Shown: one piece after another, positions 1 to 17,289 of the stretch
How the letters are laid out: each line of letters opens with the position of its first letter
Position numbering within the stretch: position 1 is the first letter of the stretch
Source of the DNA: Acidimicrobiales bacterium
Lineage (GTDB): Bacteria > Actinomycetota > Acidimicrobiia > Acidimicrobiales > Aldehydirespiratoraceae
DNA: 64,000 nucleotides
NCBI GenBank assembly: GCA_963422655.1
Contig: OY730440.1
Coordinates: forward strand, 2,233,442 to 2,297,441
Direction of reading: 5' to 3'
Program-made: the position numbers and the translations under genes
The notes under the pieces: generated by a model
Told to the model about the DNA's origin: nothing
The model's database searches: none
What the model saw: only the letters and a program-made list of their open reading frames with translations

Positions 1-65
1 ATTCGTACCAGCTCACGCCGACAAACGTCCAGGAAGAAATCGTCGCTCGCGTGCGAGGCGCGTGA
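1..65 (+). CDS. fusA: Elongation factor G, 3' end (partial, runs off window start)
   Basis: Reading from nt 3 gives ...SYQLTPTNVQEEIVARVRGA* with TGA at 63-65. This is an EF-G-like C-terminus in the canonical position directly upstream of tuf. Confidence 0.55.
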   Translation, partial: SYQLTPTNVQEEIVARVRGA

Positions 66-124
66 TTCGGCCCCGGTCCCCGAGCCGGAAACAGGTAAAA
101 AACCAGGAGTCAAGAAGGTAGGAA

Positions 125-1312
125 ATGGCCAAGGAGACGTTCGAGCGGAACAAGCCCCACGTCAATGTGGGAACGATGGGCCACATCGACCACGGCAAGA
201 CCACATTGACCGCAGCCATAACCCGGGTGCTGTCCGAACATGTCAAGGGCTCGCATTTCACCGAGTTCGACAAGATCGACAATGCCCCTGAGGAACGCGA
301 ACGCGGTATCACCATCAATGTCGCCCATGTCGAGTACGAGACAGAGAACCGGCACTACGCCCACGTCGACATGCCCGGTCACGCCGACTACATCAAGAAT
401 ATGATCACCGGAGCGGCCCAGGTGGACGGGGCGATCTTGGTGGTGTCGGCGGCCGACGGCCCCATGCCCCAGACCCGGGAGCACGTGCTGCTGGCTCGCC
501 AGGTGGGCGTGCCCAAGATCGTGGTCGCTCTCAACAAGGTCGATACGGTTGACGACCCCGAACTGCTCGAGATCGTGGACATGGAGGTACGCGATCTGCT
601 CAACGAGTACGGGTTCCCCGGGGACGACACGCCCATCGTCAACGTGTCGGCGCTGAAGGCCCTCGACGGCGACGCCGAGGCCTCACGAGCCGTTCTCGAG
701 CTCATGGACCGAGTCGACGATTACATCCCGACTCCCCAGCGTGATGTGGACAAGCCCTTCCTGATGCCGATCGAGGACGTGTTCTCCATCACCGGGCGAG
801 GAACGGTGGTGACCGGCCGGGTCGAGCAGGGGGTCGTCAACACCGGCAACGAGGTCGAGATCGTCGGTCTCAAGGAGACCCGCAAGACCACGTGCACCGG
901 GGTGGAGATGTTCCGTAAGATCCTCGACCGGGGCGAGGCTGGTGACAACATCGGCGCTCTGCTCCGAGGCGTGGACAAGAACGAGGTGCAGCGGGGCCAA
1001 GTGCTGGCCGCCCCCCGAAGCATCACTCCCCACACCGAGTTCGAGGCCCAAGTGTATGTCCTCAGCAAGGAAGAGGGCGGCCGTCACAGCCCCTTCTTCT
1101 CCAACTACCGACCCCAGTTCTACTTCCGTACCACGGATGTGACCGGGACGGTGGTGCTGCCCGAGGGCACCGAGATGTGCCTGCCCGGTGACAACACCGA
1201 GATGCGGGTCGAGCTCATCAGTCCGATCGCCATGGACGAAGGTCTGCGCTTCGCCATTCGCGAGGGGGGCCGTACCGTTGGCGCCGGTTCGGTCACCAGC
1301 ATCGTCAAGTAG
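125..1312 (+). CDS. tuf: Elongation factor Tu
   Basis: 395-aa ORF with GTPase motifs [17 protein letters not shown] and NKVD. AAGAAGG lies upstream of the ATG. Confidence 0.98.
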
Positions 1313-1322
1313 GCATCCGGCC

Positions 1323-1643
1323 ATGGCAGCAGGTCAGAGGATTCGGATTCGGCTCAAGGCGTACGACCACGAGATCATCGACCAGTCGACCAAGAAGATT
1401 GTCGAGACGGTCAAGCGCACCCAGGCCGAACTGCGGGGCCCCATACCGCTGCCGACCGAGAAACACCGCTATACTGTGGTCAGATCGCCGTTCAAGGACA
1501 AGGACTCTCGGGAGCACTTCGAGATGCGGATCCACAAGCGTCTGCTCGACATCCTCGAACCGTCCCCGAAAACGGTCGATTCCCTCCAACGCCTCGACCT
1601 GCCCGCCGGTGTCGATATCGAGCTGAAGATCCAGCAAACCTGA
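1323..1643 (+). CDS. rpsJ: 30S ribosomal protein S10
   Basis: ATG at 1323 inside the longer ORF 1188..1643. [22 protein letters not shown]... is a typical S10 N-terminus, and the gene follows tuf. Confidence 0.97.
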
Positions 1644-1646
1644 CTG

Positions 1647-1673
1647 GGGGCAGGGGTGCAGCCTCTCCGCCCC
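1647..1673. terminator. GC-rich hairpin between convergent rpsJ and the AI-2E gene (possible bidirectional terminator, no U-tract)
   Basis: GGGGC(a)GGGG at 1647-1656 pairs with CTCCGCCCC at 1665-1673 across an 8-nt loop. It lies 4 nt after the rpsJ stop. Confidence 0.3.
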
Positions 1674-1694
1674 ACCGCTGAGCCATGTACTGAT

Positions 1695-2846
1695 TCAGTC
1701 GGACCAAACCCTGTCCGGCTTGTCCGGCCGGGCTCGGGATCCGGTCTGACCGACCCGGTAGGTCGAGACGAACGACTGCACGGTGGCGGCGAAGGGTAGG
1801 GCCAGCAGCGCCCCCACCACACCCAGCAGCGCCGCTCCGGCTATCACTGCGCCGAAGGCTACGGCCACGTGGAGTTGCATGGTGTGGGCCGTGATCCGGG
1901 GGGAGAGGATGTAGTTCTCGAACTGCTGGTATGCGAAGATCGTGATCAGCACCCACAAGCCGGTGCGGGGCTCGTGGAGTAAGGCGATGAGCACGGGCAG
2001 GGCCCCGGCGATGTAGGTGCCGATCACCGGTATGAACTGGGATATGATTCCGATCCACAGAGCCAGGGGAAGCGGGAAGGGCACGTCGAGGATCGAGAGG
2101 GCGCCCCAGTGGACAAGGGCCGAGATGACGGCCAGGATCGAGCGGGAGTAGATGTACCCGCCCGTCTTTTCCATGGCTAGGTCCCAGATCTCCAGAACCA
2201 TCTTGCGCATTTGTTCGTCGAGGAACGAACATACGACGCGACGGACCTTGGGACCTTCGGCTACCAGGTAGAAGGTGAACAGAGCGACGGTGAAGATATG
2301 GAAGACGAGGCCGATGGCGGCGGCACTGAGGTTGACCACATCGTCGGCGAACCGGCCGGCCAGGTCTTCCACGCCGCCGCCGGCCACGAACTCTTGGCGC
2401 AGTTGTTCGAACTCGATGTCGGTTCCGAAGGTGTCGTTCGTCCAAGTCTCGATGTCGTCGAGATAGCGCGGCACTTCGTCCACGAAATCGTTGATCTGGG
2501 TGGCCAGGGCCGCGCCGATGGCGGTGGAGAAGCCGGCCACGGCTATGAGGACAACCACGAATATGATCCCGGTGCCGATGCCCCGCCGAAGCCCGGCTCG
2601 TTGTAGGCGGTTGACGGCCGGCTCGATTGCGAAGGACAGGAACAGCGAGATCACCAGCACCATGATCAAGGGCCGCAGGGCGCGCAAAGCCCCGATTCCG
2701 TAGTACAGGGCCAGGCCCCCCAGCCAGAACAGCAGGATCGAGCGTTTGATCCATACCGGCACCGACCTGAACCCTGAGACACTCGACCTAGGTTCCGACT
2801 CGGAGGGGAGCCCGCTCTTGGCGTCGCAGTCGGGAGTGGACGTCAC
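1695..2846 (-). CDS. AI-2E family (PerM/UPF0118) transporter
   Basis: 383-aa polytopic membrane ORF. The tail ...[49 protein letters not shown] is characteristic of AI-2E/UPF0118. Exact start uncertain. Confidence 0.85.
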
Positions 2847-2994
2847 CGGTCGAACGCTAACACCCGAAGCGCTGGTCGGCCCTGATCTGCCGAGAGAGGT
2901 CGTGAAGGGTCGAGGTTGGTGTTCGGAGTGCTCGGTGGGCGCCCGGCGCGCCGGGTGCCTATCAGCGCTGGATCGGGGGAGTGGATTACATCAT

Positions 2995-3010
2995 TGAGTA
3001 ATATTACTCA
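2995..3010. promoter_or_regulatory. Perfect 16-bp palindrome TGAGTAATATTACTCA (operator-like, contains a TAATAT -10-like hexamer)
   Basis: Read directly from the sequence. It ends 19 nt upstream of the ATG at 3029, in an AT-rich patch of an otherwise GC-rich spacer. Confidence 0.4.
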
Positions 3011-3028
3011 GCAATGTAAGGTACTGGT

Positions 3029-4309
3029 ATGGGTTCATTCCAACGATCGCATGTCGAGACCGTCGCTCTCCGTTTGGCTGAGCCTCCGAGCAGGATCGTT
3101 GCGGTGTTCGGACCTCGTCAGACTGGTAAGACCGAAATCGTAAGGCAAACGCTCGAACGGATCCCTCAGGGCAGCTGGTACATCTCGGTCGACGAACCCG
3201 ATACCCGCCGGCTCCGTGTCTCGGTCGAATCGATTGCGGTCGAATCCGTTCTGATGCCCCAGAGGCGCGACACCGAATGGCTGGTCGAGCAATGGGAACA
3301 AGCCCGGCGTCGAGCCGATCGGGCAGGACGTGACGGACGATGGTTCGTGCTGGTTCTCGACGAGATTCAGAAGGTTCCCAACTGGTCCGATGCCGTCAAA
3401 GGTCTCTGGGATGCGGACCGGGCCAGGGAGTGCCCTCTGCACGTGGTGATACTGGGTTCAGCTCCTTTGCTCATGCAATCAGGACTGCAGGAGAGCCTCG
3501 CCGGGCGTTTCGAACCTGTTCGCGTCGCCCACTGGTCGTTCCCGGAGATGGCGTCGGCGTTTGGCTTCGACTTACCCCGATATCTCTATTTCGGTGGTTA
3601 TCCGGGCGCGGCTCATCTCGTTCGGGATCCGGATCGATGGCGTGAATACGTGCTACACGCCTTGGTCGAGCCCAACATCGAGCGGGACATCCTCGCCATG
3701 ACGCGCGTGGACAAGCCGGCCCTGCTGAAACGGCTATTCGAGCTGGGGGCCCACTACTCGGGACAGATCCTTTCGTACACCAAGATGCTGGGACAGCTCC
3801 ACGATGCCGGAAACACCACCACATTGGCCCGTTACCTCGAGCTTCTCGGGCACGCGGGATTGATCGCAGGACTTCCCAAGCATGCCGATCGGCCGCTTAT
3901 CGGCAAAGGTTCGAGCCCCAAGCTCAACGTCTTGAACACCGCGATGATGACCGCCGGATCGGGGTATTCCTTCGATGAAGCCCAAGCAGACCGTACATTC
4001 TGGGGACGAGTCGTGGAGAGCGCGGTCGGAGCCCACCTGTTGAATACCGCAACGGCGAACATCGAACTTCGCTACTGGAGGGATAATCCACACGAGGTGG
4101 ACTTCGTACTGCGACGAGGATCGGCCCTGGTCGCCATCGAGGTCAAGAGCGGACCGACAAGCCCGAGCACCAGAGGCCCGAGCACCATAGGTATGACCAA
4201 GTTTCGGAATCGGTTCGAACCTCTTCGCTCGCTGCTCGTCGGTGGAGGTGGGGTGCCTCTCGAGGAGTTCCTGAGCGTGCCCGCTGAGGATTGGTTCGAA
4301 GAGTCATGA
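3029..4309 (+). CDS. AAA+ ATPase of COG1373 type (AAA_14 + DUF4143) with PD-(D/E)xK-like C-terminus
   Basis: Motifs are Walker A GPRQTGKT, Walker B VLVLDEIQ, LAGRF and wHTH-like TTTLARYLELLGHAGLI. The C-terminal HEVDFVLRRGSALVAIEVKSG has D at nt 4100 and E-V-K at 4139-4147. Confidence 0.85.
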   Translation: MGSFQRSHVETVALRLAEPPSRIVAVFGPRQTGKTEIVRQTLERIPQGSWYISVDEPDTRRLRVSVESIAVESVLMPQRRDTEWLVEQWEQARRRADRAGRDGRWFVLVLDEIQKVPNWSDAVKGLWDADRARECPLHVVILGSAPLLMQSGLQESLAGRFEPVRVAHWSFPEMASAFGFDLPRYLYFGGYPGAAHLVRDPDRWREYVLHALVEPNIERDILAMTRVDKPALLKRLFELGAHYSGQILSYTKMLGQLHDAGNTTTLARYLELLGHAGLIAGLPKHADRPLIGKGSSPKLNVLNTAMMTAGSGYSFDEAQADRTFWGRVVESAVGAHLLNTATANIELRYWRDNPHEVDFVLRRGSALVAIEVKSGPTSPSTRGPSTIGMTKFRNRFEPLRSLLVGGGGVPLEEFLSVPAEDWFEES

Positions 4310-7300
4310 ACGGCCAAGTTCTCGTATCTCGTACATGCACCGAAATTTTTCGAGATGACACAGCTCGGGACGTGGAGCATAGTTCCCTGACCCTGAGAGA
4401 GCTTCGGGCTTTATCGGTATATGTACTGCTCGGCGACCCGGGCTCCGGTAAGAGCACGGTATTTGAAGTCGAGTGCGATGAGTTGGGAGGAGAAGCTGAG
4501 CTGATCACAGCCGGTGATTTTCTCTCGTCGGACACGAACAGTCACCCCGAATGGCGAGATCGGACGCTCTTCATAGACGGACTCGATGAGATTCGAGCCG
4601 GCCAGAGAGACGCCCGTACACCTTTCGACAAGATATGGGGCCGGCTCGACTCTCTGGGACAGCCCCGCTTTCGGATATCGTGCCGCGAAGCCGACTGGTT
4701 GGGGGACAATGATCGGAAACGTCTGGCTCGGGTTTCTCCCGACTCCGAGGTGAAGATCTTCCGGCTCGACCCGTTGACGGATTCGGACATCGAAACCCTT
4801 TTGAACCATCATCTGGATGTCGACGATGCTGGGAACGTTATGGCTCAAGCCCGAGAACTAAGTTTGGAAAGACTGCTCGCCAACCCGCTGAGTTTAAAAC
4901 TGCTGGCTATTGCTTTCGCGGGTTCTGATACGGAAGTCGTGCCGACCAACCGGCTCGAGATCTTCGAGTTGGCCTGCCGACAATTGACCTCTGAGCACAA
5001 TGAAGATCACAATGAAAAGCACAATCTCGCAGGTCAACCGTTTGACCCTGATCAGATCCTGGACGGGGCGGGACGGCTGTGTGCCTTCCAACTGATCTCG
5101 GGTACCGACGGGTTCTCCATCGACCACGGCAAAACGACTACCAATTATATCCCTTCGAACCGCTGCGATGCCAAATCGCAGGAATTGTCACGACGGGCGG
5201 TCTGCACCAGGCTGTTCGAGGGGCAGGGTGGATACCGCCGTTTCGCACCCGTTCACCGACACATTGCCGAGTTCCTGGGCGCTCGCTATCTCGCTCGGGT
5301 CATCGATGATGGGCTTACAGCCCGGCGGGTCGTCTCTCTGATCGTCGGTGAGGACGGAGGCGTCGTAACCGAGTTCCGAGGCTTGTCGGCCTGGCTCGCC
5401 GTGCATAGTCGAGAGGCTCGCAGCGAGCTCATCGAACGAGACCCGATCGGAGTCGCAATATACGGTGATATCCGAGGATTCCTGACCGAAGATAAACAGG
5501 AGCTTCTGCAGTCGCTGCACCGCGAAGTCGCCAGGCTCGACTACTCGGTGAATCCGGCTTGCTTCGGACCCATTGCCTCACCCGATATGGAATCTATACT
5601 CCAGGACATTTTGACAGAGCCCAACCGTGATAGGGATCATCAGCTCACCGCCAAATTCATATTGCAGATTCTGCAATATAGTCCTCCCTTGCCCAGCCTG
5701 TCACAGACTTTGCTCGACATCATATACGATGACAGTAGATATCCTCAGGTATATAAGCATGCAATGCATGCTTATATCCATCACATGAAGGATGGCCTAG
5801 ATAGAGACGATAGTCTCGTAGGGCTCCTGGCTGACATTCGTAATAATAAAATCTCTGATCCCGACGATGAGCTAACCGAAACCCTGTTAGCACAACTCTA
5901 CCCCCAGGTGGTACCTCCATCGAAGGTGTGGGACCATTTGGTATATGGAGGAGTCGGGAACGCTTGGAAATACCACAAGTTCTGGATAAACGATCTTTTG
6001 GAACGATCATCAGAAGATGATATAGCCGAGCTCCTCGACGAGCTGTACCAACGCTTGCCCGACCTGAAGACGGCTTTGGAAGGTCATAACTTGGAGCGTC
6101 TTCCCCTCGAGCTCTTGGACCGCGGGCTGAGCGCAGTCGGAGATGATCTGGAACCAGCCCGTCTCTACAAATGGCTCAGTGCCGGTTCCATGCGAGACTG
6201 GAAGAGGTCGGGTAACCGGCTCGGCACCGCCAAGGAATTCGTCAATCGGATACGGGCTTGGTTGGAAGCGCGTCCTCAGGTTCAAAAGGCTGTCTTTCTG
6301 GAAGGACTGACCCGATGTCAGGAAGACGATTTAGGACTGTATTCGTTCGTGGCCAACCGTTTTTTGTATGGGAGCACCCTCCCGCCCGATTTTGGGCTAT
6401 GGAGCCTGGAGCATGCCGTCAGACTCTTGAAGAGCCACCCGCAAATTTCGGAATGTCTCCTCGCGGAAGCCTTTCGCTCGTACTCTCAACAGACTCATGA
6501 TGAGGGGCTGTTTCGTTCCACTCTCATCGAGCACACTCGTGGGCACGAAGTATTGGAAAGACAACTGGCAGATATGTTGGATCAATCTAGGAGCCCAACA
6601 CTTGTAAAACGAACTCAACAAGTCGAAACGTATCAAGAAGAAGATCAGCGTAGGCAAAGAGAATGGCTCGGATATGTTCGATCGAACATTGAGGCTCTAC
6701 GAGACAACCGAGCCGCTCCGGTCATTCTGCACCAATTGGGTGAGGTATATTTCAGATCCTTACCGGGCCAGGCCGACTATGACGAGCCCACACAAAGGAT
6801 CTCGGCATTGCTCGGTGATGGTGATTTGATCGAGGCCGCGCTCCGCGGTCTTCGCGGTACGGTATCCAGAGATGATATCCCAGAATTTGAGGAAATAATA
6901 CGCCTTTATTCAGAGTCCAAGTTTTCTTGCCTGACCCTCCCATTTCTAGCTGGTATGGATGAGATATCGAGGGTTACACCAGAACAGCTCGATTGTTTTA
7001 GTGTGCGTCAGATTCGGACAGCTCTAGCTTTCTACTTCTTTTATGGTCGTAATGATAAGGCGGAATGGTATCGGAGGTGGCTCGACTCACATCCCGATCT
7101 CCTGTCCGAGGTGCTGATCAAATGGGCCAAGTCAGCGATACACGGTGGCAAGGAGTCATCGCTAGGGTTGTGCAATCTTGCCTTCAGGACCGATCATGCA
7201 CATATTGCTCGTCGAGTTAGCTTGACCCTACTCAGAACTTTTCCGGTACGTTGTAAGCTGTCACAGATCCAGGCACTGGACTGTCTACTCTGGGCCGCTT

Positions 7301-8427
7301 TGCAGCATTGTGACAAACTATCGTTCGAGAAGTTGATCCAGGAAAAACTATCCCGCAAGACTATGCATGCTTCCCAGCGCGTTCATTGGCTGGCTGCGGG
7401 TACCGTTATCGATCCCGAGGTGTATGGGCCGACCCTGGGTGACTTCGTCGGCGACCGAGATGGCCGGATCAGACAACTGGTGGAATTCTTATGTCCTCCG
7501 ATTTTACCTCTTCAAGAACTGACACGGCTCATAGTCGATAAGCTTGAGATTTCGACTCTTGAACTATTCGTCAGGCTTGTCGGGCCCTCGTTCGGGCCTG
7601 TTCTGGATAGTTTTGGCATATACGAAATACAAGAATCGCAACTGGTGGGTCGTTTGATCGAACAACTCAGTTCTTTTCCTGGTAAGGATGCGGCCCAGGC
7701 CTTGGATCATCTGGGCTCGGATTCAGCGCTGGTCTCTTGGCGTGACACGCTCATCCGAGCCCGCAGTCGCCAGCGGGTCATCCACCGTGATTTCACCTAT
7801 CACTGTCCCGACATCGAACGGATCCACCGAACGTTATCGAATCAGTCTCCTGCCAATGCCACCGATCTGGCTGCTCTCGTGTCGGAGCGACTCGAAAAGA
7901 TTGCTGTTCGGATTCGTCGAGGTAACATCAATGACTGGCGACAATACTGGAACGTCGACTCATATGACAGGCCGCTGGATTCCAGGCCCGAGAATTCTTG
8001 TAGAGATATGCTGCTCTCGGACCTGCGGCAATGCCTTCCCAAGGGTGTGGATGCTCAACCCGAAGGGCAATACGCTGGCAACAAACGGGCCGATATCAGG
8101 GTCTCGTACCAGGATTTCAACGTGCCGGTAGAAATCAAGAAGAGCAATCATCGAGACCTCCGGAGCGCGCTACGGTGTCAGTTGATCAAGAAGTATACGA
8201 GCGATCCGGCCACAGGCGGATACGGGATCTACCTGGTGTTCTGGTTTGGTAACAATTCGCAGCCGACTCCCCACAACGATTATCCAGCCACCGCCTCAGA
8301 GCTGCGAGAGCAGCTAGAAGCTGAGCTGACCGCAGAAGAGGCACGCAAGATCTCGGTTCGTGTAATCGATGTGGAAGCCCCATCACAATCGGCGCCAACC
8401 TCGAAGAGCGCGTGCTGCAGGTTGTGA
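4306..8427 (+). CDS. Large NACHT/STAND-type P-loop NTPase with helical sensor region and C-terminal PD-(D/E)xK-like module
   Basis: The ATG at 4306 forms an ATGA overlap with the upstream stop; the ORF track opens at 4291. N-terminal motifs are GDPGSGKST (4432-4458), TLFIDGLDE (4564-4590), ANPLSLKLLA and FAPVHRHIAEFLGARYLA. The C-terminal RADIRVSYQDFNVPVEIKKS has D at 8092 and E-I-K at 8131-8139. Confidence 0.85.
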   Translation: MNGQVLVSRTCTEIFRDDTARDVEHSSLTLRELRALSVYVLLGDPGSGKSTVFEVECDELGGEAELITAGDFLSSDTNSHPEWRDRTLFIDGLDEIRAGQRDARTPFDKIWGRLDSLGQPRFRISCREADWLGDNDRKRLARVSPDSEVKIFRLDPLTDSDIETLLNHHLDVDDAGNVMAQARELSLERLLANPLSLKLLAIAFAGSDTEVVPTNRLEIFELACRQLTSEHNEDHNEKHNLAGQPFDPDQILDGAGRLCAFQLISGTDGFSIDHGKTTTNYIPSNRCDAKSQELSRRAVCTRLFEGQGGYRRFAPVHRHIAEFLGARYLARVIDDGLTARRVVSLIVGEDGGVVTEFRGLSAWLAVHSREARSELIERDPIGVAIYGDIRGFLTEDKQELLQSLHREVARLDYSVNPACFGPIASPDMESILQDILTEPNRDRDHQLTAKFILQILQYSPPLPSLSQTLLDIIYDDSRYPQVYKHAMHAYIHHMKDGLDRDDSLVGLLADIRNNKISDPDDELTETLLAQLYPQVVPPSKVWDHLVYGGVGNAWKYHKFWINDLLERSSEDDIAELLDELYQRLPDLKTALEGHNLERLPLELLDRGLSAVGDDLEPARLYKWLSAGSMRDWKRSGNRLGTAKEFVNRIRAWLEARPQVQKAVFLEGLTRCQEDDLGLYSFVANRFLYGSTLPPDFGLWSLEHAVRLLKSHPQISECLLAEAFRSYSQQTHDEGLFRSTLIEHTRGHEVLERQLADMLDQSRSPTLVKRTQQVETYQEEDQRRQREWLGYVRSNIEALRDNRAAPVILHQLGEVYFRSLPGQADYDEPTQRISALLGDGDLIEAALRGLRGTVSRDDIPEFEEIIRLYSESKFSCLTLPFLAGMDEISRVTPEQLDCFSVRQIRTALAFYFFYGRNDKAEWYRRWLDSHPDLLSEVLIKWAKSAIHGGKESSLGLCNLAFRTDHAHIARRVSLTLLRTFPVRCKLSQIQALDCLLWAALQHCDKLSFEKLIQEKLSRKTMHASQRVHWLAAGTVIDPEVYGPTLGDFVGDRDGRIRQLVEFLCPPILPLQELTRLIVDKLEISTLELFVRLVGPSFGPVLDSFGIYEIQESQLVGRLIEQLSSFPGKDAAQALDHLGSDSALVSWRDTLIRARSRQRVIHRDFTYHCPDIERIHRTLSNQSPANATDLAALVSERLEKIAVRIRRGNINDWRQYWNVDSYDRPLDSRPENSCRDMLLSDLRQCLPKGVDAQPEGQYAGNKRADIRVSYQDFNVPVEIKKSNHRDLRSALRCQLIKKYTSDPATGGYGIYLVFWFGNNSQPTPHNDYPATASELREQLEAELTAEEARKISVRVIDVEAPSQSAPTSKSACCRL

Positions 8428-8720
8428 TGGTTGCCGCGGTTGTCGGTGCGCAGCTCAGCGGAACGGGCGTTCGGGCTCAGACTGTCGAAGCCGGGTAGCT
8501 CTTCTCGTGGTGCCGTCCTCGACTTGGCGGGCAGGTTGGACTCGACCCAGACCTGAGCTACAGTACTCATGGCTACATTCGATGTCCGTGAAGGCCACCA
8601 GGAACCGCACGGCCCAACTGAGACTCACTCCGCCGGGCCTGCCCGAGCGGAGTGTTCGCGTGAGTGGACGCTCACGTTGGAACATCAGGTTCGCAAATTC
8701 AGGATCGACAAGGACGAGAC

Positions 8721-9362
8721 ATGGCCACCAAGGCGATCGTGGGTACCAAGATCGGTATGACCCAGATCTGGGACGACGACAACCGAGTCGTTCCTGTCAC
8801 AGTGCTTTCGGTCTTGCCGTGTCGGGTCGTTCAGATCAAGACACCCGGCAACGATGGCTACAGCGCCATCCAGGTGACCTTCGGGAACCAGGATCCGGCT
8901 CGGCTCAATCGACCTGAGGCCGGTCACTTCGCCAAGGTCGGAGTCGAACCGGGCCGCAAGATTCTCGAGCTTCGTCTCGACGACGTGAGCGACTACTCGA
9001 TCGGTCAGCAGATCGGCGCCGATCGGCTGACTTCGGGCGAAAGGGTCGATGTGACCGCGGTGTCCAAGGGCCGCGGGTTCACCGGCGTCATGAAACGTCA
9101 CGGCTTCAAGGGCCAGCCCGCCGGTCACGGCGCCCACAAGGTCCACCGCAAGCCCGGCGCGATCGGCCAGTGCGCCACCCCTTCCCGTGTCTTCAAAGGT
9201 AAGAAGCTCCCGGGCCGCTCCGGTGCGGTCAAGGTCACGACGCTCAATCTCGAGGTCGTCCGGGCCGACAGCAAGGCCGAAGTGGTGCTGGTCAGAGGAT
9301 CCGTCCCCGGACCGGCCGGTGGGACCGTCGTCGTCCGCGACGCGGTGAAAGCTCCGAGGTAG
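8721..9362 (+). CDS. rplC: 50S ribosomal protein L3
   Basis: ATG at 8721 inside ORF 8664..9362. The N-terminus is MATKAIVGTKIGMTQIWD... Confidence 0.96.
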   Translation: MATKAIVGTKIGMTQIWDDDNRVVPVTVLSVLPCRVVQIKTPGNDGYSAIQVTFGNQDPARLNRPEAGHFAKVGVEPGRKILELRLDDVSDYSIGQQIGADRLTSGERVDVTAVSKGRGFTGVMKRHGFKGQPAGHGAHKVHRKPGAIGQCATPSRVFKGKKLPGRSGAVKVTTLNLEVVRADSKAEVVLVRGSVPGPAGGTVVVRDAVKAPR

Positions 9363-9368
9363 CCGGAG

Positions 9369-10034
9369 ATGGGCTCGGTCGAAGTGCTGACCCAGGCCGG
9401 AGAGCCGGTGGGCGAAGTGACCCTGGCCGACTCGGTGTTCGGTGTCGAGCCCAACGTCGGCGTAATGCATCAGGTGGTGACGGCTCAACTGGCCGCCCGC
9501 CGGGCCGGCACCCACTCGACCAAGACCCGGACCGAGGTGGCCGGCGGCGGCGCCAAGCCGTGGAACCAGAAAGGCACTGGTCGGGCCCGTCACGGGTCGA
9601 TCCGTTCGCCTCAATGGCGAGGCGGAGGAGTGGCCCACGGTCCCAAGCCCCGCAGCTACCGTTCGCGCACCCCGAAGAAGATGAAGCGCTTGGCTTTGGC
9701 CTCGGCTCTTTCGGACCGGGCCGCAGCCGGCCGGGTGATCGTGGTGGACCGGTGGCGGTTCGAGGTCCCCCGGACCGCCGACGGCAAAGCCGCGCTGGCT
9801 GCTGTCGGTGCCGAGGGCAAGGTGCTGGTGGTGCTCGAGGACGTGGGTGGCACGGCTTGGAAGAGTTTCCGGAACCTGGCCTCGGTCCACTGCCTGCACC
9901 GCGATGAGCTGAACACCTACGACGTGCTCGACAGCGATGTCGTCGTGTTCACTCGTGATACCCTTCCGGGCCGGCATATTGTTCCGGTCTCCGGCTCCGT
10001 TGAAAGCCTCGACTCCGAGCCCACCGATGCGTGA
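9369..10034 (+). CDS. rplD: 50S ribosomal protein L4
   Basis: 221 aa containing [33 protein letters not shown]. Confidence 0.96.
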
Positions 10035-10317
10035 TCATCGCGACGTCGTCATCCGTCCAGTGGTGTCGGAGAAGTCCTATGGGCTGCTCGAGGACAACGT
10101 CTACACCTTCGTTGTGGCCCCGGATTCGACCAAGCCCGAGATCCGTGACGCCGTCGAGGCCGTCTTCGACGTAACCGTCGTGAAGGTCAACACGCTTCAC
10201 CGCAAGCCCAAGCGGCGGCGCGATCGACGCACTCAAAAATGGGGCCGGCGGCCCGGTCAGAAGCGGGCCATCATCACCCTGGCCGAGGGTGACTCGATCG
10301 ATCTGTTCGAGGTCTGA
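10027..10317 (+). CDS. rplW: 50S ribosomal protein L23
   Basis: ATG at 10027 with an 8-nt overlap onto rplD. The N-terminus is [18 protein letters not shown]... Confidence 0.95.
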
Positions 10318-10319
10318 TC

Positions 10320-11156
10320 ATGGCCGTGCGCAAACGCAATCCTTCGAGCCCCGGGCGCCGCTTCCAGACGGTGCCGGACTTCTCCGAGATAACCAAGTCG
10401 AAGCCAGAGCGAAGCCTGCTGGTCAAGCAGTCGTCCACGGGTGGCCGCAACGCCCAAGGCCGCAAGACCTCCCGCCATCGTGGCGGCGGCCACAAGCAGC
10501 GTTACCGTCGTGTGGACTTCACCCGCAAGAAGGACGGCGTGCCGGCCACGGTAGCCACGATCGAATACGACCCCAACCGAACCTGTCGCATTGCGCTGCT
10601 CCATTATCACGATGGGGAGAAGCGATACATCCTGGCCCCCAAGGGAGTGGTGCCCGGCGACGTCTTGATGTCGGGCCAGGGCAGTGAGATACGACCCGGT
10701 AACGCCATGGCGCTGCGCCATGTCCCGGTGGGTACGACCGTGCACAACGTGGAGCTGAAACCGGGAGCGGGAGGTCGCTTGGCTCGCAGCGCCGGCGCCA
10801 GCGTTCAGCTCGTGGCCAAGGAGGGCGAGTTCGCCACCCTGCGCCTCCCCAGCACGGAGATGCGCCGGGTGCCCATCGCCTGCCGGGCCACCATCGGTGA
10901 GGTCGGCAACGCCGAGCACGAGCTGGTCAAGATCGGCAAGGCCGGCCGCAACCGTTGGAAGGGCGTCAAACCCCAGACCAGGGGGGTGGCCATGAATCCC
11001 GTTGATCATCCCCTCGGCGGTGGTGAGGGCAAGTCTTCGGGCGGCCGCCATCCGGTATCGCCCTGGGGCCAGCCCGAAGGTCGTACCCGGGCCAAGAACA
11101 AGAACTCTGACAAGATGATCGTTCGACGGCGCCGCAAGCGCGGGTCCCGGAGGTAG
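10320..11156 (+). CDS. rplB: 50S ribosomal protein L2
   Basis: 278 aa containing [13 protein letters not shown] and [14 protein letters not shown]. Confidence 0.98.
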
Positions 11157-11160
11157 AGCC

Positions 11161-11439
11161 ATGCCCCGTAGCCTTAAAAAAGGTCCATTCGTCGACGAAC
11201 ATCTGTTGAAGAAGGTCGACGAGCTCAACGAGAAGAACGACAAGAAGGTGATCAAGACTTGGTCCAGGCGGTCCACGATCATCCCCGACATGGTCGGGCA
11301 CACGCTGGCCGTGCACGACGGTCGTAAGCACGTGCCGGTGTATGTCACCGAGACCATGGTCGGCCACAAGCTGGGTGAGTTCGCTCCCACCCGGACGTTC
11401 CGGTTCCATGCCGGCCAGGAGAGAGGGACCCGGCGTTGA
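11161..11439 (+). CDS. rpsS: 30S ribosomal protein S19
   Basis: 92 aa containing [11 protein letters not shown] and [17 protein letters not shown]. Confidence 0.98.
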
Positions 11440-12050
11440 CCAACGGTTCGAAGACCAACGAGCGGCCCGGCACCCGGGCCCGAGCCGGTTACGTGCGGAC
11501 CACCGCTTCCAAGGCCCGGGCCGTCCTTGATCTGATCCGGGGCAAGAGCTACGCCGATGCGGTGGAGATCCTGGCATTTTGCCAACGCGATGCTGCCCAC
11601 CCCATCCGCAAGGTCGTCGATTCGGCGGTGGCCAACGCCGAGCACAACGGCGGGGTCGGTGCCGAGGAACTCTACATCTCGGCCTGCTATGCCGACGAGG
11701 GCCCCACCCAGAAGCGGTGGCGCCCCCGGGCCCGGGGCCGGGCCACCCGGATCCGCAAACGGTCCTGTCACATCACCGTGATCGTCAGCCGTTACGATGA
11801 GGATACCTTGGCGGAGCTTCGGACCCGCCGGGACGGGGCCGGCCCCCGCCGCTCAGTTGCCGCGGCCGAGGCCCGGCGCCGCCGGGTGGCCCGCTCACGG
11901 AAGGCTTCCGAGCCTGCCGGTGAGCAAGCCGCTGCGGTTGGCGCCGACAAAGTGGAAGCTCAGGCCGCGGCCGTGGTCTCGGCTACCGCTGAAGCCTTGG
12001 CCGAGACCGACGCCGGCCCCGGCGCCGACCGCGAGACGAAGGAAGCCTGA
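11436..12050 (+). CDS. rplV: 50S ribosomal protein L22 with long Ala/Arg-rich C-terminal tail
   Basis: TTG start at 11436 overlaps the rpsS stop. The core is [23 protein letters not shown]..., followed by a tail of about 85 aa. Confidence 0.93.
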
Positions 12051-12954: not shown

Positions 12955-13368
12955 ATGTTGATGCCGCGCAAGGTCATGCACCGAAAACACCATCGAGGCC
13001 GTACCAAGGGGATCTCGAAGGGGGGGACCGAAGTCGCCCACGGCGACTTCGGGATCCAGGCCCTGGAACCAGGGTGGATCACCTCCCGCCAGATCGAGGC
13101 GGCCCGGGTGGCCATGACTCGCCACATCAAGAGAGGCGGCAAGGTTTGGATCAACGTCTTCCCCGACAAACCTGTCACCCAGAAACCGGCTGAGACCCGA
13201 ATGGGTTCGGGCAAGGGTAACCCCGAGCACTGGGTGGCGGTGGTCCGGCCCGGGCGAGTCCTGTTCGAGCTCTCCTATCACGACGAGCAGGTAGCCCGGG
13301 GAGCTATCGACCGGGCTATCCAGAAGTTGCCGATAAAGGCCCGGTTCGTGAGCCGAGAGGATGTCTAG
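12955..13368 (+). CDS. rplP: 50S ribosomal protein L16
   Basis: [16 protein letters not shown]... ATG at 12955 is preferred over the GTG at 12946 that opens the ORF. Confidence 0.95.
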
Positions 13369-13587
13369 ATGGCCCGTGCCAAAGCCCTGACCGACCTCGG
13401 AACCGCCGACCTTGTGGAGAAGTTGTCCGACACCAAGACCGAACTGTTCAACCTGCGCTTCCAGCACGCCACCGGCCAACTCGACAACACCGCCCGGCTC
13501 AGGCAGTTGAAGAAGGAGGTGGCCCGGGTGATGACCGAGCTTCGGGCCCGCCAGATGGAACCGAGCGTCAGGAGTACCGATGACTGA
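13369..13587 (+). CDS. rpmC: 50S ribosomal protein L29
   Basis: 72 aa containing [30 protein letters not shown]. Confidence 0.95.
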
Positions 13588-13867
13588 GGACACCCCCCGA
13601 TCCGGTGGCGCCGGGGCGCGCAACTCCCCCAAGGTCCGTGAAGGGCTGGTGGTGTCGAACCGGATGGACAAGACCGTCATCGTCGCCTCGACCGCTCGGG
13701 TCCGGCACCGCCGCTACGGCAAGACCGTTCGCCGGACCACCAGCCTGGTCGTCCACGACGGCAACAACGAGCTCAACGTGGGCGACCGGGTGAGGGTTTG
13801 CGAGACACGGCCCCTGTCCAAGACCAAGCGCTGGCGTCTGGTGGAGATCCTGGAGCGGGCCAGATGA
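13580..13867 (+). CDS. rpsQ: 30S ribosomal protein S17
   Basis: 95 aa containing [18 protein letters not shown]...[10 protein letters not shown]. It overlaps rpmC by 8 nt. Confidence 0.95.
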
Positions 13868-14232
13868 TCCAGCAGGAGTCGCGGCTGCGTGTCGCTGACA
13901 ACTCGGGGGCCAAGGAGGTCTTGTGCATCAAGGTCTTGGGCGGTTCCAAGCGCCGCTACGCATCCATAGGCGATGTGTTCGTGGCCACCGTGAAGGATGC
14001 CATCCCGGGCGCCGGGGTCAAGAAGGGCGAGCTCGTCCGTTGCGTCGTGGTGCGCACCCGTAAGGAGCGGCGCCGCCCCGACGGCAGCTACATCCGCTTC
14101 GACGAGAACGCAGCCGTGCTCATCAACGACCAGCGCCAGCCCCGAGGCACTCGCATCTTCGGCCCGGTCGGCCGCGAGCTACGCGACAAGCAGTTCATGC
14201 GCATCGTTTCATTGGCCCCGGAGGTTCTCTGA
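13864..14232 (+). CDS. rplN: 50S ribosomal protein L14
   Basis: ATG at 13864 forms an ATGA overlap with rpsQ. The N-terminus is [18 protein letters not shown]... Confidence 0.97.
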
Positions 14233-14567
14233 TGGCTTCGAACCGCAAGCGCCGCTCGCTGAAGATCCTCGAGGGTGACCGGGTCGTGGTGTTGTCCGGC
14301 AAGGACAGGGGAGTCTCCGGCGTGGTCGAACGGTCCCTGCCCGAACAGGGAAAGGTGATCGTCGAGGGGGTCAACGTGGCCCGCAAGCACCAAGCCCCCA
14401 CCCGCCAGGCCCAGCAGGGCGGGATCATCGACAGGGCCATGCCCATCGATGTGTCGAACGTGGCTGTGGTGAGCCCCGCCGACGGCAGACCGACCCGAGT
14501 CGGCTACCGGTTCACCCCCGAGGGAGCCAAGGTCCGGATCTGCAAGCGCACCGGAGCCGATCTGTGA
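14232..14567 (+). CDS. rplX: 50S ribosomal protein L24
   Basis: 111 aa with a KOW-like [20 protein letters not shown]. Confidence 0.95.
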
Positions 14568-15139
14568 TGGCGACCGCTACCTATGTCCCGCGCCTGCGGT
14601 CCCGCTTCGACACCGAGATCAAACCGGCGCTGATGGCCGACATCGGTCTTTCCAATGTGATGATGGTGCCCAGGCTCGAGAAGATCGTTCTCAACGTGGG
14701 CGTCGGCGGTGCCATCAGCCAGGCCCGGCTCTTGGAGGGCGCGCTGGCCGACGTGGAGACCATCGCCGGCCAGAAGCCGGTGATCACCCGGGCCAAGCGG
14801 CCTCTGGCCAGCTTCAAGCTGCGAGCTGGCATGGCCATCGGATGCAAGGTCACCCTCCGGGGCGACCGGATGTACGAGTTCCTCGACCGGCTCATCACAC
14901 TGGCCATTCCCCGCATCCGCGACTTTCGGGGCCTGCCGCCCCGGTCCTTCGACGGCCACGGCAACTACACCTTCGGAGTGACCGAGCAGCTCATGTTTCC
15001 CGAGATCGACTACGACACCGTGGATACCACCCGAGGTATGGACATAACGATCGTCACCACGGCGAAGTCCGATGAAGCGGGCCGGGCCCTGCTGTCGGGT
15101 TTCGGTTTTCCGTTTCGTCCCGAACAGGGAGGGCAGTGA
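14564..15139 (+). CDS. rplE: 50S ribosomal protein L5
   Basis: 191 aa containing [14 protein letters not shown]. The start is GTG 14564 or ATG 14567. Confidence 0.96.
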
Positions 15140-15145
15140 AGGGAT

Positions 15146-15331
15146 ATGGCCAGGAAGGCTCTGAAAGAGAAGCAGCGCCGCACCCCCAAGTTCAAGGTGC
15201 GGGCCTACACTCGGTGCCGCCGGTGCGGCCGACCCCGCTCGGTGTACAGGAAGTTCGGCCTCTGCCGTATCTGCCTGCGCGATCTCGCCCATGCCGGCGA
15301 GCTGCCAGGAGTGAAGAAGGCGAGCTGGTGA
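15146..15331 (+). CDS. rpsN: 30S ribosomal protein S14, type Z (zinc-binding)
   Basis: 61 aa with [20 protein letters not shown]. Confidence 0.96.
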
Positions 15332-15343
15332 GGTGATGCAGAC

Positions 15344-15748
15344 ATGACGATGACAGATCCGATTGCCGACATGCTCACCCGCATTCGCAACGCCAACACA
15401 GCTATGCACGACGAGGTGTCGATGCCGTCCTCCAACCAGAAACGGGCTCTGGCCGAGGTACTTGAACGGGAGGGCTACATCGCCTCTTACATCGAAGAGC
15501 GCAACGGCAACCGGCCCGGCAAGAAGTTGACGATCGAGATGAAGTACTCGCCGGAGCGGAGCCGCGTCATTTCAGGGCTCCAGCGGGTGTCCAAGCCCGG
15601 CCTGCGCATTTACCGCAAGCGAAACGAGATCCCCAGGGTCCAGGGCGGTCTGGGCGTGGCAGTGGTGTCGACCAGCCGGGGGCTCATGAGCGACCGCGAG
15701 GCGAGGAGGAACCGCATGGGCGGCGAGATCCTCTGCTTCGTTTGGTGA
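15344..15748 (+). CDS. rpsH: 30S ribosomal protein S8
   Basis: 134 aa with MTMTDPIADMLTRIRNA... Confidence 0.96.
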   Translation: MTMTDPIADMLTRIRNANTAMHDEVSMPSSNQKRALAEVLEREGYIASYIEERNGNRPGKKLTIEMKYSPERSRVISGLQRVSKPGLRIYRKRNEIPRVQGGLGVAVVSTSRGLMSDREARRNRMGGEILCFVW

Positions 15749-15756
15749 GGAGAGAG

Positions 15757-16296
15757 ATGAGCCGGGTGGGCAAGGCCCCCATCACCGTCCCCAGCGGTGT
15801 GACCGCGACGATCGACGGGCGCACCGTTACGGTGGAAGGCGCCAAGGGCAAGCTCCAACGGGAGCTGCCCGGCTTCATCACCGCCAGCCTCCGAGACGGC
15901 ACCTTGCAACTGGAGCGATCCGACGACACCAAGCAGAGCAAGTCCTTGCACGGGCTGGCCCGCTCGCTGGTGCAGAACATGGTCACCGGTGTCAGCCAGG
16001 GGTTCATGAAGGAGCTACGGATCCAGGGAGTCGGGTATCGAGCCCAAGCCCAAGGCCCGAGTACCATCGAGCTGGCTCTCGGTTTCAGCCATCCGGTGCG
16101 GATCGAGGCCCCCGACGGGGTGGAGTTCGAGGTGCCCACCCAGACTCGCATCTTGGTGAAGGGGATCGACAAGCAACTGGTGGGCCAAGTAGCCGCCGAC
16201 ATCCGCAAGTGGCGCAAACCCGAACCCTACAAGGGTAAGGGGATCCGCTACGCCGACGAGCGAGTCGTTCGCAAAGCCGGGAAGGCGGCCAAGTGA
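15757..16296 (+). CDS. rplF: 50S ribosomal protein L6
   Basis: ATG at 15757 inside ORF 15742. The N-terminus is MSRVGKAPITVPSGV... Confidence 0.96.
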   Translation: MSRVGKAPITVPSGVTATIDGRTVTVEGAKGKLQRELPGFITASLRDGTLQLERSDDTKQSKSLHGLARSLVQNMVTGVSQGFMKELRIQGVGYRAQAQGPSTIELALGFSHPVRIEAPDGVEFEVPTQTRILVKGIDKQLVGQVAADIRKWRKPEPYKGKGIRYADERVVRKAGKAAK

Positions 16297-16329
16297 CGGC
16301 CGTACCGGCACCGGCGACCCGGCGCAACC

Positions 16330-16704
16330 ATGGCTGATCGAGCCCGAAACCGTCGAGAGGGCCGGCTCCGTCGACATCGGAGGGTGCGCAAGACCGTACA
16401 GGGCACCCCGCAACGCCCCCGTCTGTCGGTGTTTCGTTCCAGCCGCCACATTGTGGCCCAGGTGATCGATGACACCAACGGCGTGACCCTGGTATCGGCC
16501 TCCACTCTCGAGCCCGATCTGAGGACCGCCACTGCCGACCAAGGCGGAAACGTAGCTGCCGCCACCACGGTGGGTGCCTTGGTGGCGCAGCGGGCCATGC
16601 AGGCCGGTATCTCGACGGTGGTATTCGACCGAGGCGGCTACCGCTACCACGGCCGAGTGGCAGCACTGGCCGACGCCGCCCGTGAAGCAGGATTGGAGTT
16701 CTAG
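16330..16704 (+). CDS. rplR: 50S ribosomal protein L18
   Basis: 124 aa containing [18 protein letters not shown]. Confidence 0.95.
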
Positions 16705-17289
16705 ATGGCCGAGGCATCCCCCACCCCCGAGGGGCAACTGCGCGAATCGCGCGTCATCCATATCAACCGGGTGGCCAAGGTGGTGAAGGGCGGCCGCCGA
16801 TTCTCATTCACCGCGCTGGTGGTGATCGGCGACGGCGCCGGCCGGGTCGGGCTGGGTTACGGCAAGGCCAAGGAGGTGCCGCTGGCCATCCAGAAGGGCA
16901 CCGAGGAGGCCAGACGCAACGTGTTCTCGGTGCCTATGGCGGGCAGCACCATCATTCATCCCGTGATCGGGACCATGGGCGCAGGCCGAGTGCTGCTCAA
17001 GCCGGCTGCGCCCGGCACCGGTGTGATCGCCGGCGGCGCGGCCCGAGCCATTCTCGAGGAGGCCGGCGTCAGCGACGTGCTCTGCAAGTCGCTGGGTTCG
17101 TCCAATCACATCAACGTGGCCCGGGCCACCATCGTCGGGCTCCAGAGCCTGCGGCGACCCGACGAAGTGGCTCGCCTCAGGGGCTTGGATCCCGAGGAGT
17201 TCCTTCCCGCCAGCCTGTGGGCCGCCTATACCCGAACCGAACGGTCTCTGTCCGGCTCGGCCCCGACCGCCTCTGCTGAAGCCGTGTGA
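16705..17289 (+). CDS. rpsE: 30S ribosomal protein S5
   Basis: 194 aa containing [28 protein letters not shown]. Confidence 0.96.

Follow-up and report, generated by a model that had tools for sequence, protein, structure and literature searches.

The rpsJ-rplC junction of Acidimicrobiia: an old gap at a probable operon boundary, with a putative structured leader of rplC and a probably acquired two-gene cassette

Genes and features of the junction

The window analysed here is a stretch of 64,000 nucleotides (nt) from an Acidimicrobiales bacterium (GenBank assembly GCA_963422655.1, contig OY730440.1, positions 2,233,442 to 2,297,441 of the forward strand), and the subject is the interval in it between rpsJ and rplC, the genes of ribosomal proteins S10 and L3. 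This junction is contiguous in most bacteria. In the window, the two genes are separated by a gap of 7077 nt (1644-8720) which contains three genes, namely an antisense gene for an AI-2E family transporter and a two-gene cassette low in guanine plus cytosine (GC) that encodes an ATPase and a large EruA-like NACHT/STAND protein (Table 1). The separation of rpsJ from rplC was found to be ancient and class-wide in Acidimicrobiia, a promoter-like site and a putative structured leader precede rplC, and the low-GC block is the part of the gap specific to this lineage. The original prediction, made from the letters of the window, had placed the end of rpsJ at 1643 and the start of rplC at 8721, and both positions are exact. 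Its 293-nt spacer before rplC was likewise confirmed by the coordinates, as the large open reading frame (ORF) is followed by 8428-8720 up to the rplC start codon.

The same gene order was present in an independent ENA assembly contig (ERZ21742368; locus L001 in our numbering) with 98.1% nucleotide identity to the window. The ATPase gene and the large ORF overlap by ATGA, and the large ORF is called at the same start in L001. A GC hairpin noted earlier right after rpsJ does exist, but shuffled sequences fold just as well (z -0.26) and the U tail is absent; a role as a bidirectional terminator is at best a weak possibility. No terminator-like site was reported in 1-9500 by the promoter/terminator scan.

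Table 1. Positions of genes and other features around the rpsJ-rplC junction in the window.
Feature	Position	Strand	Remarks
tuf	125-1312	+	first gene at window start
rpsJ	1323-1643	+	Pfam Ribosomal_S10, E 2.9e-36; start is ATG 1323
Hairpin, GC-rich	1647-1673		within the convergent spacer of 51 nt that separates rpsJ from the AI-2E gene
AI-2E family transporter gene	1695-2846	-	PF01594, E 8.6e-64
Low-GC block	2847-8535	+	bounded by the AI-2E start codon and the promoter-like site of rplC
Palindrome, about 34 bp	2986-3019		TTACATCATTGAGTAATATTACTCAGCAATGTAA; 10 nt 5' of the ATPase start codon
AAA_14 + DUF4143 ATPase, 426 amino acids	3029-4309	+	Pfam, PADLOC
EruA-like NACHT/STAND protein, 1373 amino acids	4306-8427	+	NCBIfam NF058535
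Promoter-like site for rplC	8536-8564	+	-35 TTGGAC 8536-8541, 17-nt spacer, -10 TACAGT 8559-8564
Putative structured 5' leader of the rplC operon	8572-8671	+	alignment A1, covariance model R1
rplC	8721-9362	+	Pfam Ribosomal_L3; first gene of the rplC-rplD-rplW-rplB-... unit

Separation of rpsJ and rplC in Acidimicrobiia

Two sets of loci were used for comparison, 80 from genomes and 120 from metagenomes, the latter fetched with a 17-mer from the region upstream of rplC. In each locus the genes for tuf, S10, AI-2E, the cassette proteins, L3 and L4 were located. About 40 of the 120 metagenome loci were chance matches of the 17-mer without rplC, and in some Acidimicrobiia loci rpsJ lay beyond the 10 kb fetched; 87 loci hold both genes. 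The best matches of the L3 protein were from Acidimicrobiales genomes at no more than 81% identity, many of them labelled Candidatus Aldehydirespirator(aceae).

The rpsJ-rplC spacer in these 87 Acidimicrobiia loci had a minimum of 188 nt, a median of 1526 nt and a maximum of 9649 nt. It was 150-499 nt long and geneless in 31 loci, 0.5-1.3 kb in four, 1.3-1.8 kb in 22, where it typically held the AI-2E gene alone, and longer than 1.8 kb, up to 9.6 kb, in the remaining 30. In contrast, rpsJ and rplC were only about 0-90 nt apart in 13 loci of other Actinomycetota (Gordonia, Klenkia, Williamsia, Yinghuangia and several metagenome-assembled genomes). The tuf-rpsJ spacer was 10 nt in the window (1313-1322), had a median of 13 nt in Acidimicrobiia (40 nt or less in 51 of 68 loci) and measured 15-457 nt in the same 13 other Actinomycetota. 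Since no Acidimicrobiia spacer is shorter than 188 nt, the split is an ancient trait of the class and not a recent event, and the premise of the original prediction, a once contiguous junction in this lineage, does not hold. The rpsJ gene would then belong with the tuf/str unit rather than with rplC, co-transcription being suggested by the 10-nt spacer alone.

The spacer GCATCCGGCC at 1313-1322 has no obvious Shine-Dalgarno sequence; rpsJ may thus be translationally coupled or initiate in an unusual manner. In some Microthrixaceae-like loci (L032, L052, L162) rpsJ is also 1.9-4.4 kb away from tuf and stands alone between two gaps. Gordonia, Yinghuangia and Williamsia (L070, L076, L081) share the motif GACACGCCCGACCGCGGG about 100-250 nt 5' of rpsJ, within their long tuf-rpsJ spacer; this may be a separate actinobacterial leader before rpsJ.

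Promoter-like site and putative structured leader in front of rplC

The pattern TTGnnn, 16-19 nt, TAnnnT was found within the 120 nt 5' of the leader described below in 40 of 56 loci, where 2.3 were expected. Its distance from the leader is nearly fixed in the relatives, usually 33-47 nt; in the window the -10 box lies 11 nt from the leader, and the extra hairpin of most relatives is absent. In those relatives (e.g. L008, 9820-9865) this extra hairpin separates the -10 box from the leader's AATCGA box; the corresponding stretch of the window, which lacks it, is 8565-8575. The TTGGAC-17-TACAGT site of the window has a weak -35 box and was missed by a stricter promoter scanner. Presumably, the site at 8536-8564 fires. 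The original prediction had reasoned that rplC and the genes after it need their own promoter and that L4-type leader control, if present, is uncoupled from rpsJ. In silico, both points agree with the data, the first through this site and its equivalents in 40 of the 56 relatives.

In the 100 nt upstream of rplC, a box GGAGCGTTCGCGTGA with a hairpin 5' of it was seen across the loci. An alignment of 56 distinct leader sequences was made with MAFFT (A1), and RNAalifold gave a consensus of 19 pairs, 11 of which show compensatory double changes. In the window the helices are P1 (8584-8590/8608-8613), P2 (8593-8596/8601-8606) and P3 (8627-8634/8647-8654) with an inner stem (8635-8637/8642-8644), and an invariant box, GGAGYGTTCGCGTGA, occupies 8649-8663. 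The covariation score was 0.30, compared with 0.078 at most in controls, and the observed values were reached by none of 500 shuffles. A covariance model (R1) scored 91.7 bits at the window leader, which was its sole match in the 64 kb. It gave one plus-strand match per Acidimicrobiia locus, always just 5' of rplC, among them 8 loci from genomes and 66 from metagenomes that the seed did not contain. In the non-Acidimicrobiia loci no score exceeded about 15 bits, and nearly all of the chance 17-mer loci without rplC that were searched were rejected (L182 gave a weak 21 bits). In about 140 loci the conserved box ends 12-105 nt 5' of the rplC ATG, regardless of the gene content upstream. We read 8572-8671 and the site upstream of it as a probable promoter plus structured 5' leader of the rplC operon.

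The leader was not found in Rfam 15: there was no match at E<=1 in window positions 1-12000, no relevant match at E<=5 in six related loci and no gathering-level match in the whole window. Two further ideas were rejected. The first was an ancestral leader that rpsJ had hopped over; the leader is absent 5' of rpsJ in other Actinomycetota by regular expression and by covariance model. The second was a long-range pairing of the 5' AATCGACGT box with the 3' TTCGCGTGA box, which by eye are not complementary.

By its position, the leader is most likely an autoregulatory site that would bind a ribosomal protein. L4 is suggested as the ligand by analogy, and L3 or another protein of the operon is possible.

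The low-GC block, the AI-2E gene and the variable cargo of the gap

The GC content of the block 2847-8535 is 0.556, against 0.653 in the remaining window. At third codon positions (GC3) the values for tuf, rpsJ, the AI-2E gene, rplC, rplD and rplB were 0.79-0.85 (tuf 0.85, rplC 0.80), compared with 0.68 for the ATPase gene and 0.58 for the large ORF. The AI-2E gene has a GC content of 0.635 and a GC3 of 0.84, like tuf and rplC. This check of window GC and codon positions bears out the earlier description of the antisense AI-2E gene as native-looking and of the two-gene cassette as low in GC; the cassette is compositionally foreign. The earlier hand counts of G+C per 60 nt (23, 28 and 45) were exact on recount.

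The distribution of the genes in the gap follows the same division. Wherever the L3 of a relative is at least 73% identical, an orthologue of the AI-2E gene (47-64% identity) stands antisense in the rpsJ-rplC interval, as it does in several more distant relatives. Hence the AI-2E gene, as far as these comparisons go, is an old resident fixed in the Candidatus Aldehydirespiratoraceae-like lineage. The block 2847-8535, on the other hand, was absent from the 80 genome and 120 metagenome loci except L001, so that the lineage-specific share of the gap is 5.7 kb out of 7.1 kb. Judged from composition and distribution, this block is the only recent acquisition at the junction, probably by horizontal transfer. 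An ancient, fixed arrangement, which the original prediction had named as its own refutation, therefore applies to the split and to the AI-2E gene and not to the cassette, which is confined to the window and L001.

Between the window and L001, the synonymous divergence (dS) of the cassette is 0.035-0.046, like that of the flanks, and the cassette must accordingly predate the split of the two strains and have been maintained since. Both ORFs are intact in the two strains, with a ratio of nonsynonymous to synonymous divergence (dN/dS) of 0.15 in the ATPase gene and 0.44 in the large ORF. About 5% of the residues of the large protein differ from those of its L001 counterpart (13006-17115), together with a 12-nt indel, the ribosomal genes being nearly identical; in its last 400 codons dN/dS is 0.8-0.9.

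Occupied gaps were seen at this junction in more than 30 relatives, closed chromosomes included. Their cargo comprises type IIG-like restriction-modification genes (L003, L015) and genes for indole-3-glycerol-phosphate synthase, DUF222/HNH endonucleases, beta-propeller proteins, polysaccharide deacetylase, cytochrome P450, ERG4/24 and a BTAD-STAND regulator. The insertions lie on either side of the AI-2E gene, some between rpsJ and its 3' end and others between its start and the promoter of rplC; in L002 and L004 the AI-2E start adjoins the promoter of rplC. The restriction-modification genes of L003 (3558-6119) and L015 (376-2958) lie next to rpsJ and encode large type IIG-like proteins with HSDR_N, N6_Mtase and Eco57I-type regions. 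Unrelated AAA_14 + DUF4143 ATPases without an EruA-like partner occur in the same gap in L003 (8479-9735), L018 (4262-5620) and L020 (2464-3801); that of L003 is about 28% identical to the window ATPase.

Proteins and portability of the two-gene cassette

The ATPase matched the Pfam families DUF4143 (E 3.3e-25) and AAA_14 (E 2e-21). Over its full length (residues 4-423) it matched PDLC04791 of PADLOC (E 9.9e-158), the model of the candidate phage-defence family PDC-S01, and its architecture is that of PDC-S01. A weak YraN-like match of the PD-(D/E)xK type covers residues 319-392.

No Pfam family was assigned to the large protein, and the Pfam NACHT model gave no match. It was aligned by NF058535 (antiphage_EruA) over model positions 13-1317 of 1318 with E 2.6e-257, which makes it, by sequence, a clear homologue of EruA though not a certified equivalog. 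The predicted layout has a NACHT NTPase at the N-terminus, followed by a long helical region and, at the C-terminus, a PD-(D/E)xK-like domain. The Walker A motif GDPGSGKS and the C-terminal D...ExK are invariant in 41 homologues. The predicted structure of the first 520 residues (mean confidence, pLDDT, 75.7) matched NLRC4, NOD2, NLRP3 and NAIP5 with E 3e-8 to 4e-4 and probability 1.00. For the last 293 residues (pLDDT 80) the best matches were weak, and they were to the PD-(D/E)xK nucleases BstEII, Can2, EndoMS, Hjc and Mus81 (E 2e-3 to 0.5). Searches of PDB and PHROG with the sequences of the cassette proteins were uninformative.

More than 3275 homologues of the large protein were found, the nearest outside L001 being 55% identical. 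In five further, unrelated contexts a DUF4143 ATPase gene lies directly 5' of the homologue, either sharing 4 nt with it or lying no more than 2 nt away, and all five homologues have 48-53% identity with the protein of the window. In every context of the pair, namely the window and L082, L083, L084, L208, L209 and L210, the palindrome TTACnnnATTGAGTA-n4-TACTCAATnnnGTAA of about 34 bp stands about 10 nt 5' of the ATPase start. This palindrome forms the left boundary of the conserved module and may serve as an operator or fold into an RNA hairpin.

Little was found in the literature on EruA/HyoA or on DUF4143 in defence. According to a 2026 preprint (PMC12803255), Erebus, Hypnos and bNACHT64 belong together in one STAND family, Avs10, whose trigger is the major capsid protein of phages; protection against phage is reported there for Avs10 representatives. 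The cassette of the window is probably a new member of this known anti-phage STAND family, perhaps a two-gene variant, and it would act as a phage sensor of the abortive-infection type.

Discussion

Gene order, phylogenetic distribution, RNA covariation, composition, family assignments and the portability of the module are all shown by the data, and the following account is a likely one. The boundary between the str/tuf and S10 units would lie one gene later in Acidimicrobiia than in E. coli, with rpsJ appended directly to tuf. The rplC gene would open a separate transcription unit, with a promoter-like site of the sigma-A type and a structured leader of about 100 nt. If rplC opens its own unit, the rpsJ-rplC interval is an ordinary inter-operon spacer and as such tolerant of insertions. 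In the Candidatus Aldehydirespiratoraceae-like lineage the AI-2E gene would have become fixed in this gap, with variable cargo coming and going on both sides of it. In the window strain and its close relative L001, the self-contained module of palindrome, ATPase and EruA-like gene would have arrived by horizontal transfer in the stretch from the AI-2E start to the promoter of rplC. The leader would bind a ribosomal protein of the operon and so provide autoregulation, and the STAND protein would recognise a phage protein and thereby activate its nuclease domain.

Several results weigh against this account. There is no integrase ORF in the gap, no tRNA gene in the window and no target-site duplication flanking the block, and direct or inverted repeats at its ends gave only short matches at chance level. 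Thus, of the features of an integrative island, deviating composition and patchy presence were found, and integrase, tRNA or att site and flanking repeats were not. No genome with an empty site was found, the nearest relative apart from L001 having 81% L3 identity, and a metagenome scan for an empty-site relative returned none above 80% L3 identity. The scan of 1-9500 found no terminator after the large ORF. Four low-GC Acidimicrobiia-like loci (L021, L026, L037, L040) lack an R1 match; their rpsJ-rplC gaps are 220-1850 nt long, and they may carry a diverged or different leader. Similarity of the leader to ribosomal RNA was not found, the best match against E. coli 23S, the sole rRNA compared, being a 9-mer with E 0.73. 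The large protein reached 857.5 bits on NF058535, below the equivalog cutoff of 1000 bits. On plasmids, its distant homologues (25-30% identity) have neither the ATPase partner nor the palindrome, and the pair may therefore work differently from the tested Erebus proteins.

The cassette might serve a purpose other than phage defence, either as a selfish mobile module or as an NTPase/nuclease pair with another task, for example in DNA repair or in the control of plasmids. In favour of this, PDC-S01 has no more than candidate status, the score of the large protein is under the EruA cutoff, the ATPase has a faint PHROG match to a DNA transposition protein (E 1.2e-4), and unrelated DUF4143 ATPases recur in the same gap. 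Nevertheless, the full-length EruA alignment, the NACHT fold with a nuclease-like C-terminus and the neighbours of the pair elsewhere, which are restriction-modification, toxin-antitoxin and AAA_15/21 genes, speak for defence, and no transposase, integrase or terminal repeats were found. We consider a non-defence role unlikely.

It seems less probable still that the element before rplC acts as DNA, as an extended promoter or a binding region for a transcription factor, and not as a folded RNA. It does adjoin the promoter-like site, neither a protein partner nor rRNA mimicry was identified for it, and P3 is palindromic, so that the minus strand also gets a weak score. However, 11 of the 19 pairs are compensatory, and standard pairing holds in 97.4% of the cells, against 33-45% in controls with the 3' partners shifted by 1-3 columns. 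Inserted hairpins of variable length sit precisely on the helix tips of P2 and P3. Moreover, the leader is 3' of the -10 box, and R1 is strand-specific, with 65-108 bits on the plus strand and 23 bits or less on the minus strand.

A recent insertion of about 7 kb could in principle have split a contiguous, co-transcribed rpsJ-rplC pair, after which rplC gained a new promoter and rpsJ lost the leader control. This would fit the contiguity of the junction in most bacteria, the spacers of about 0-90 nt in the sampled Actinomycetota outside the class and the foreign composition of the cassette, but we regard it as very improbable, as no Acidimicrobiia locus falls below 188 nt, the promoter-like site and leader are conserved across the class, the AI-2E gene is common to all close relatives, and only 5.7 of the 7.1 kb is specific to the lineage. 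Of the proposed 7 kb wedged into a contiguous operon, there remain the occupied gap and the foreign cassette; the split itself is ancient and the AI-2E gene an old resident. Finally, a chimeric metagenomic contig at the ribosomal cluster, for which the metagenomic source and the sharp drop of GC in the cassette might be quoted, is hardly credible given the same order in the independent L001 at 98.1% identity with evenly spread differences, a cassette dS that matches the flanks, and occupied gaps in more than 30 relatives.

Returning to the account of a shifted operon boundary, a more far-reaching version of it, to which we give an even chance, is that the leader is an undescribed, class-wide autoregulatory RNA of rplC that arose with the shift of the operon start and has L4 or L3 as its likeliest ligand; a second possibility is that the cassette is an obligate two-component variant of Erebus/Avs10. 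The rplC leader is the most useful new item of this study and was in none of the libraries searched. It would be a candidate new ribosomal-protein leader for a poorly studied and mostly uncultured class, available with a covariance model and about 140 examples, and could serve as a test case for how ribosomal-protein feedback is rebuilt when an operon boundary moves. For operon prediction and synteny annotation in Acidimicrobiia, rplC should be treated as an operon start and the gap as a trait of the lineage. Flanked by rpsJ and the leader, the hotspot is easy to find in metagenome-assembled genomes, where it can track the turnover of defence genes. The combination of ATPase, palindrome and an Erebus/Avs10-like NACHT protein is a possible new defence architecture, perhaps not yet examined experimentally.

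Comparison with known systems

The S10 leader of E. coli mediates attenuation and translational repression by L4. It is the model for feedback of this kind, and like the window leader it is the 5' leader of an operon for L3, L4, L23, L2 and the rest. The E. coli leader, however, precedes rpsJ, whereas the window leader follows it and has neither an intrinsic terminator nor detectable similarity to E. coli 23S. With only 10 nt between tuf and rpsJ, the element placed after rpsJ and no terminator-like site in 1-9500, the window does not have an S10 (L4) leader of the E. coli type. Such a leader 5' of rpsJ is not expected here, given the short tuf-rpsJ spacer and the confinement of the E. coli L4 leader RNA to Gammaproteobacteria (PMC3616713). 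The window element does show the marks of a ribosomal-protein leader in its position before the first gene of the operon and its covariation-backed structure. In a 2020 survey of such leaders, an L4 candidate upstream of rplC was reported only in Archaeoglobi (Eckert & Weinberg, PMC7247131). This candidate, in front of rplC-rplD-rplW-rplB, is likewise a structured RNA directly 5' of rplC as the first gene of its unit, with a ligand deduced from the content of the operon, but it belongs to another domain of life. The Acidimicrobiia leader appears to be structurally unrelated to it, to judge from the Rfam 15 negatives, the coverage of the Archaeoglobi motif by Rfam being unchecked.

The gene arrangement resembles that of str-operon-linked rps10, in which S10 directly follows EF-Tu and the large ribosomal-protein cluster opens with L3. 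Older literature places this arrangement in cyanobacteria, plastids and archaea. Here it is found in an actinobacterial class whose sister lineages keep rpsJ and rplC abutting, and the interval has become a variable hotspot for insertions. In its variable content, enriched in restriction-modification, HNH, ATPase and STAND genes, the hotspot is similar to the defence islands found between core genes. It differs in being anchored by genes for ribosomal proteins, in the lack of any visible integrase or att-like repeats, and in the largely metabolic nature of much of the cargo of relatives.

The large protein shares with Erebus, Hypnos and bNACHT64 (Avs10) the full-length alignment to the EruA model, the NACHT NTPase, the long helical region and a putative effector-like nuclease domain. 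The subfamily of the window stands apart in always being preceded by a DUF4143 ATPase gene and the palindrome, and in its score of 857 against 1000 bits. The ATPase resembles PDC-S01 of PADLOC in its full-length match to PDLC04791, but its gene overlaps the NACHT gene by ATGA, which suggests a two-gene unit rather than a lone PDC-S01 gene.

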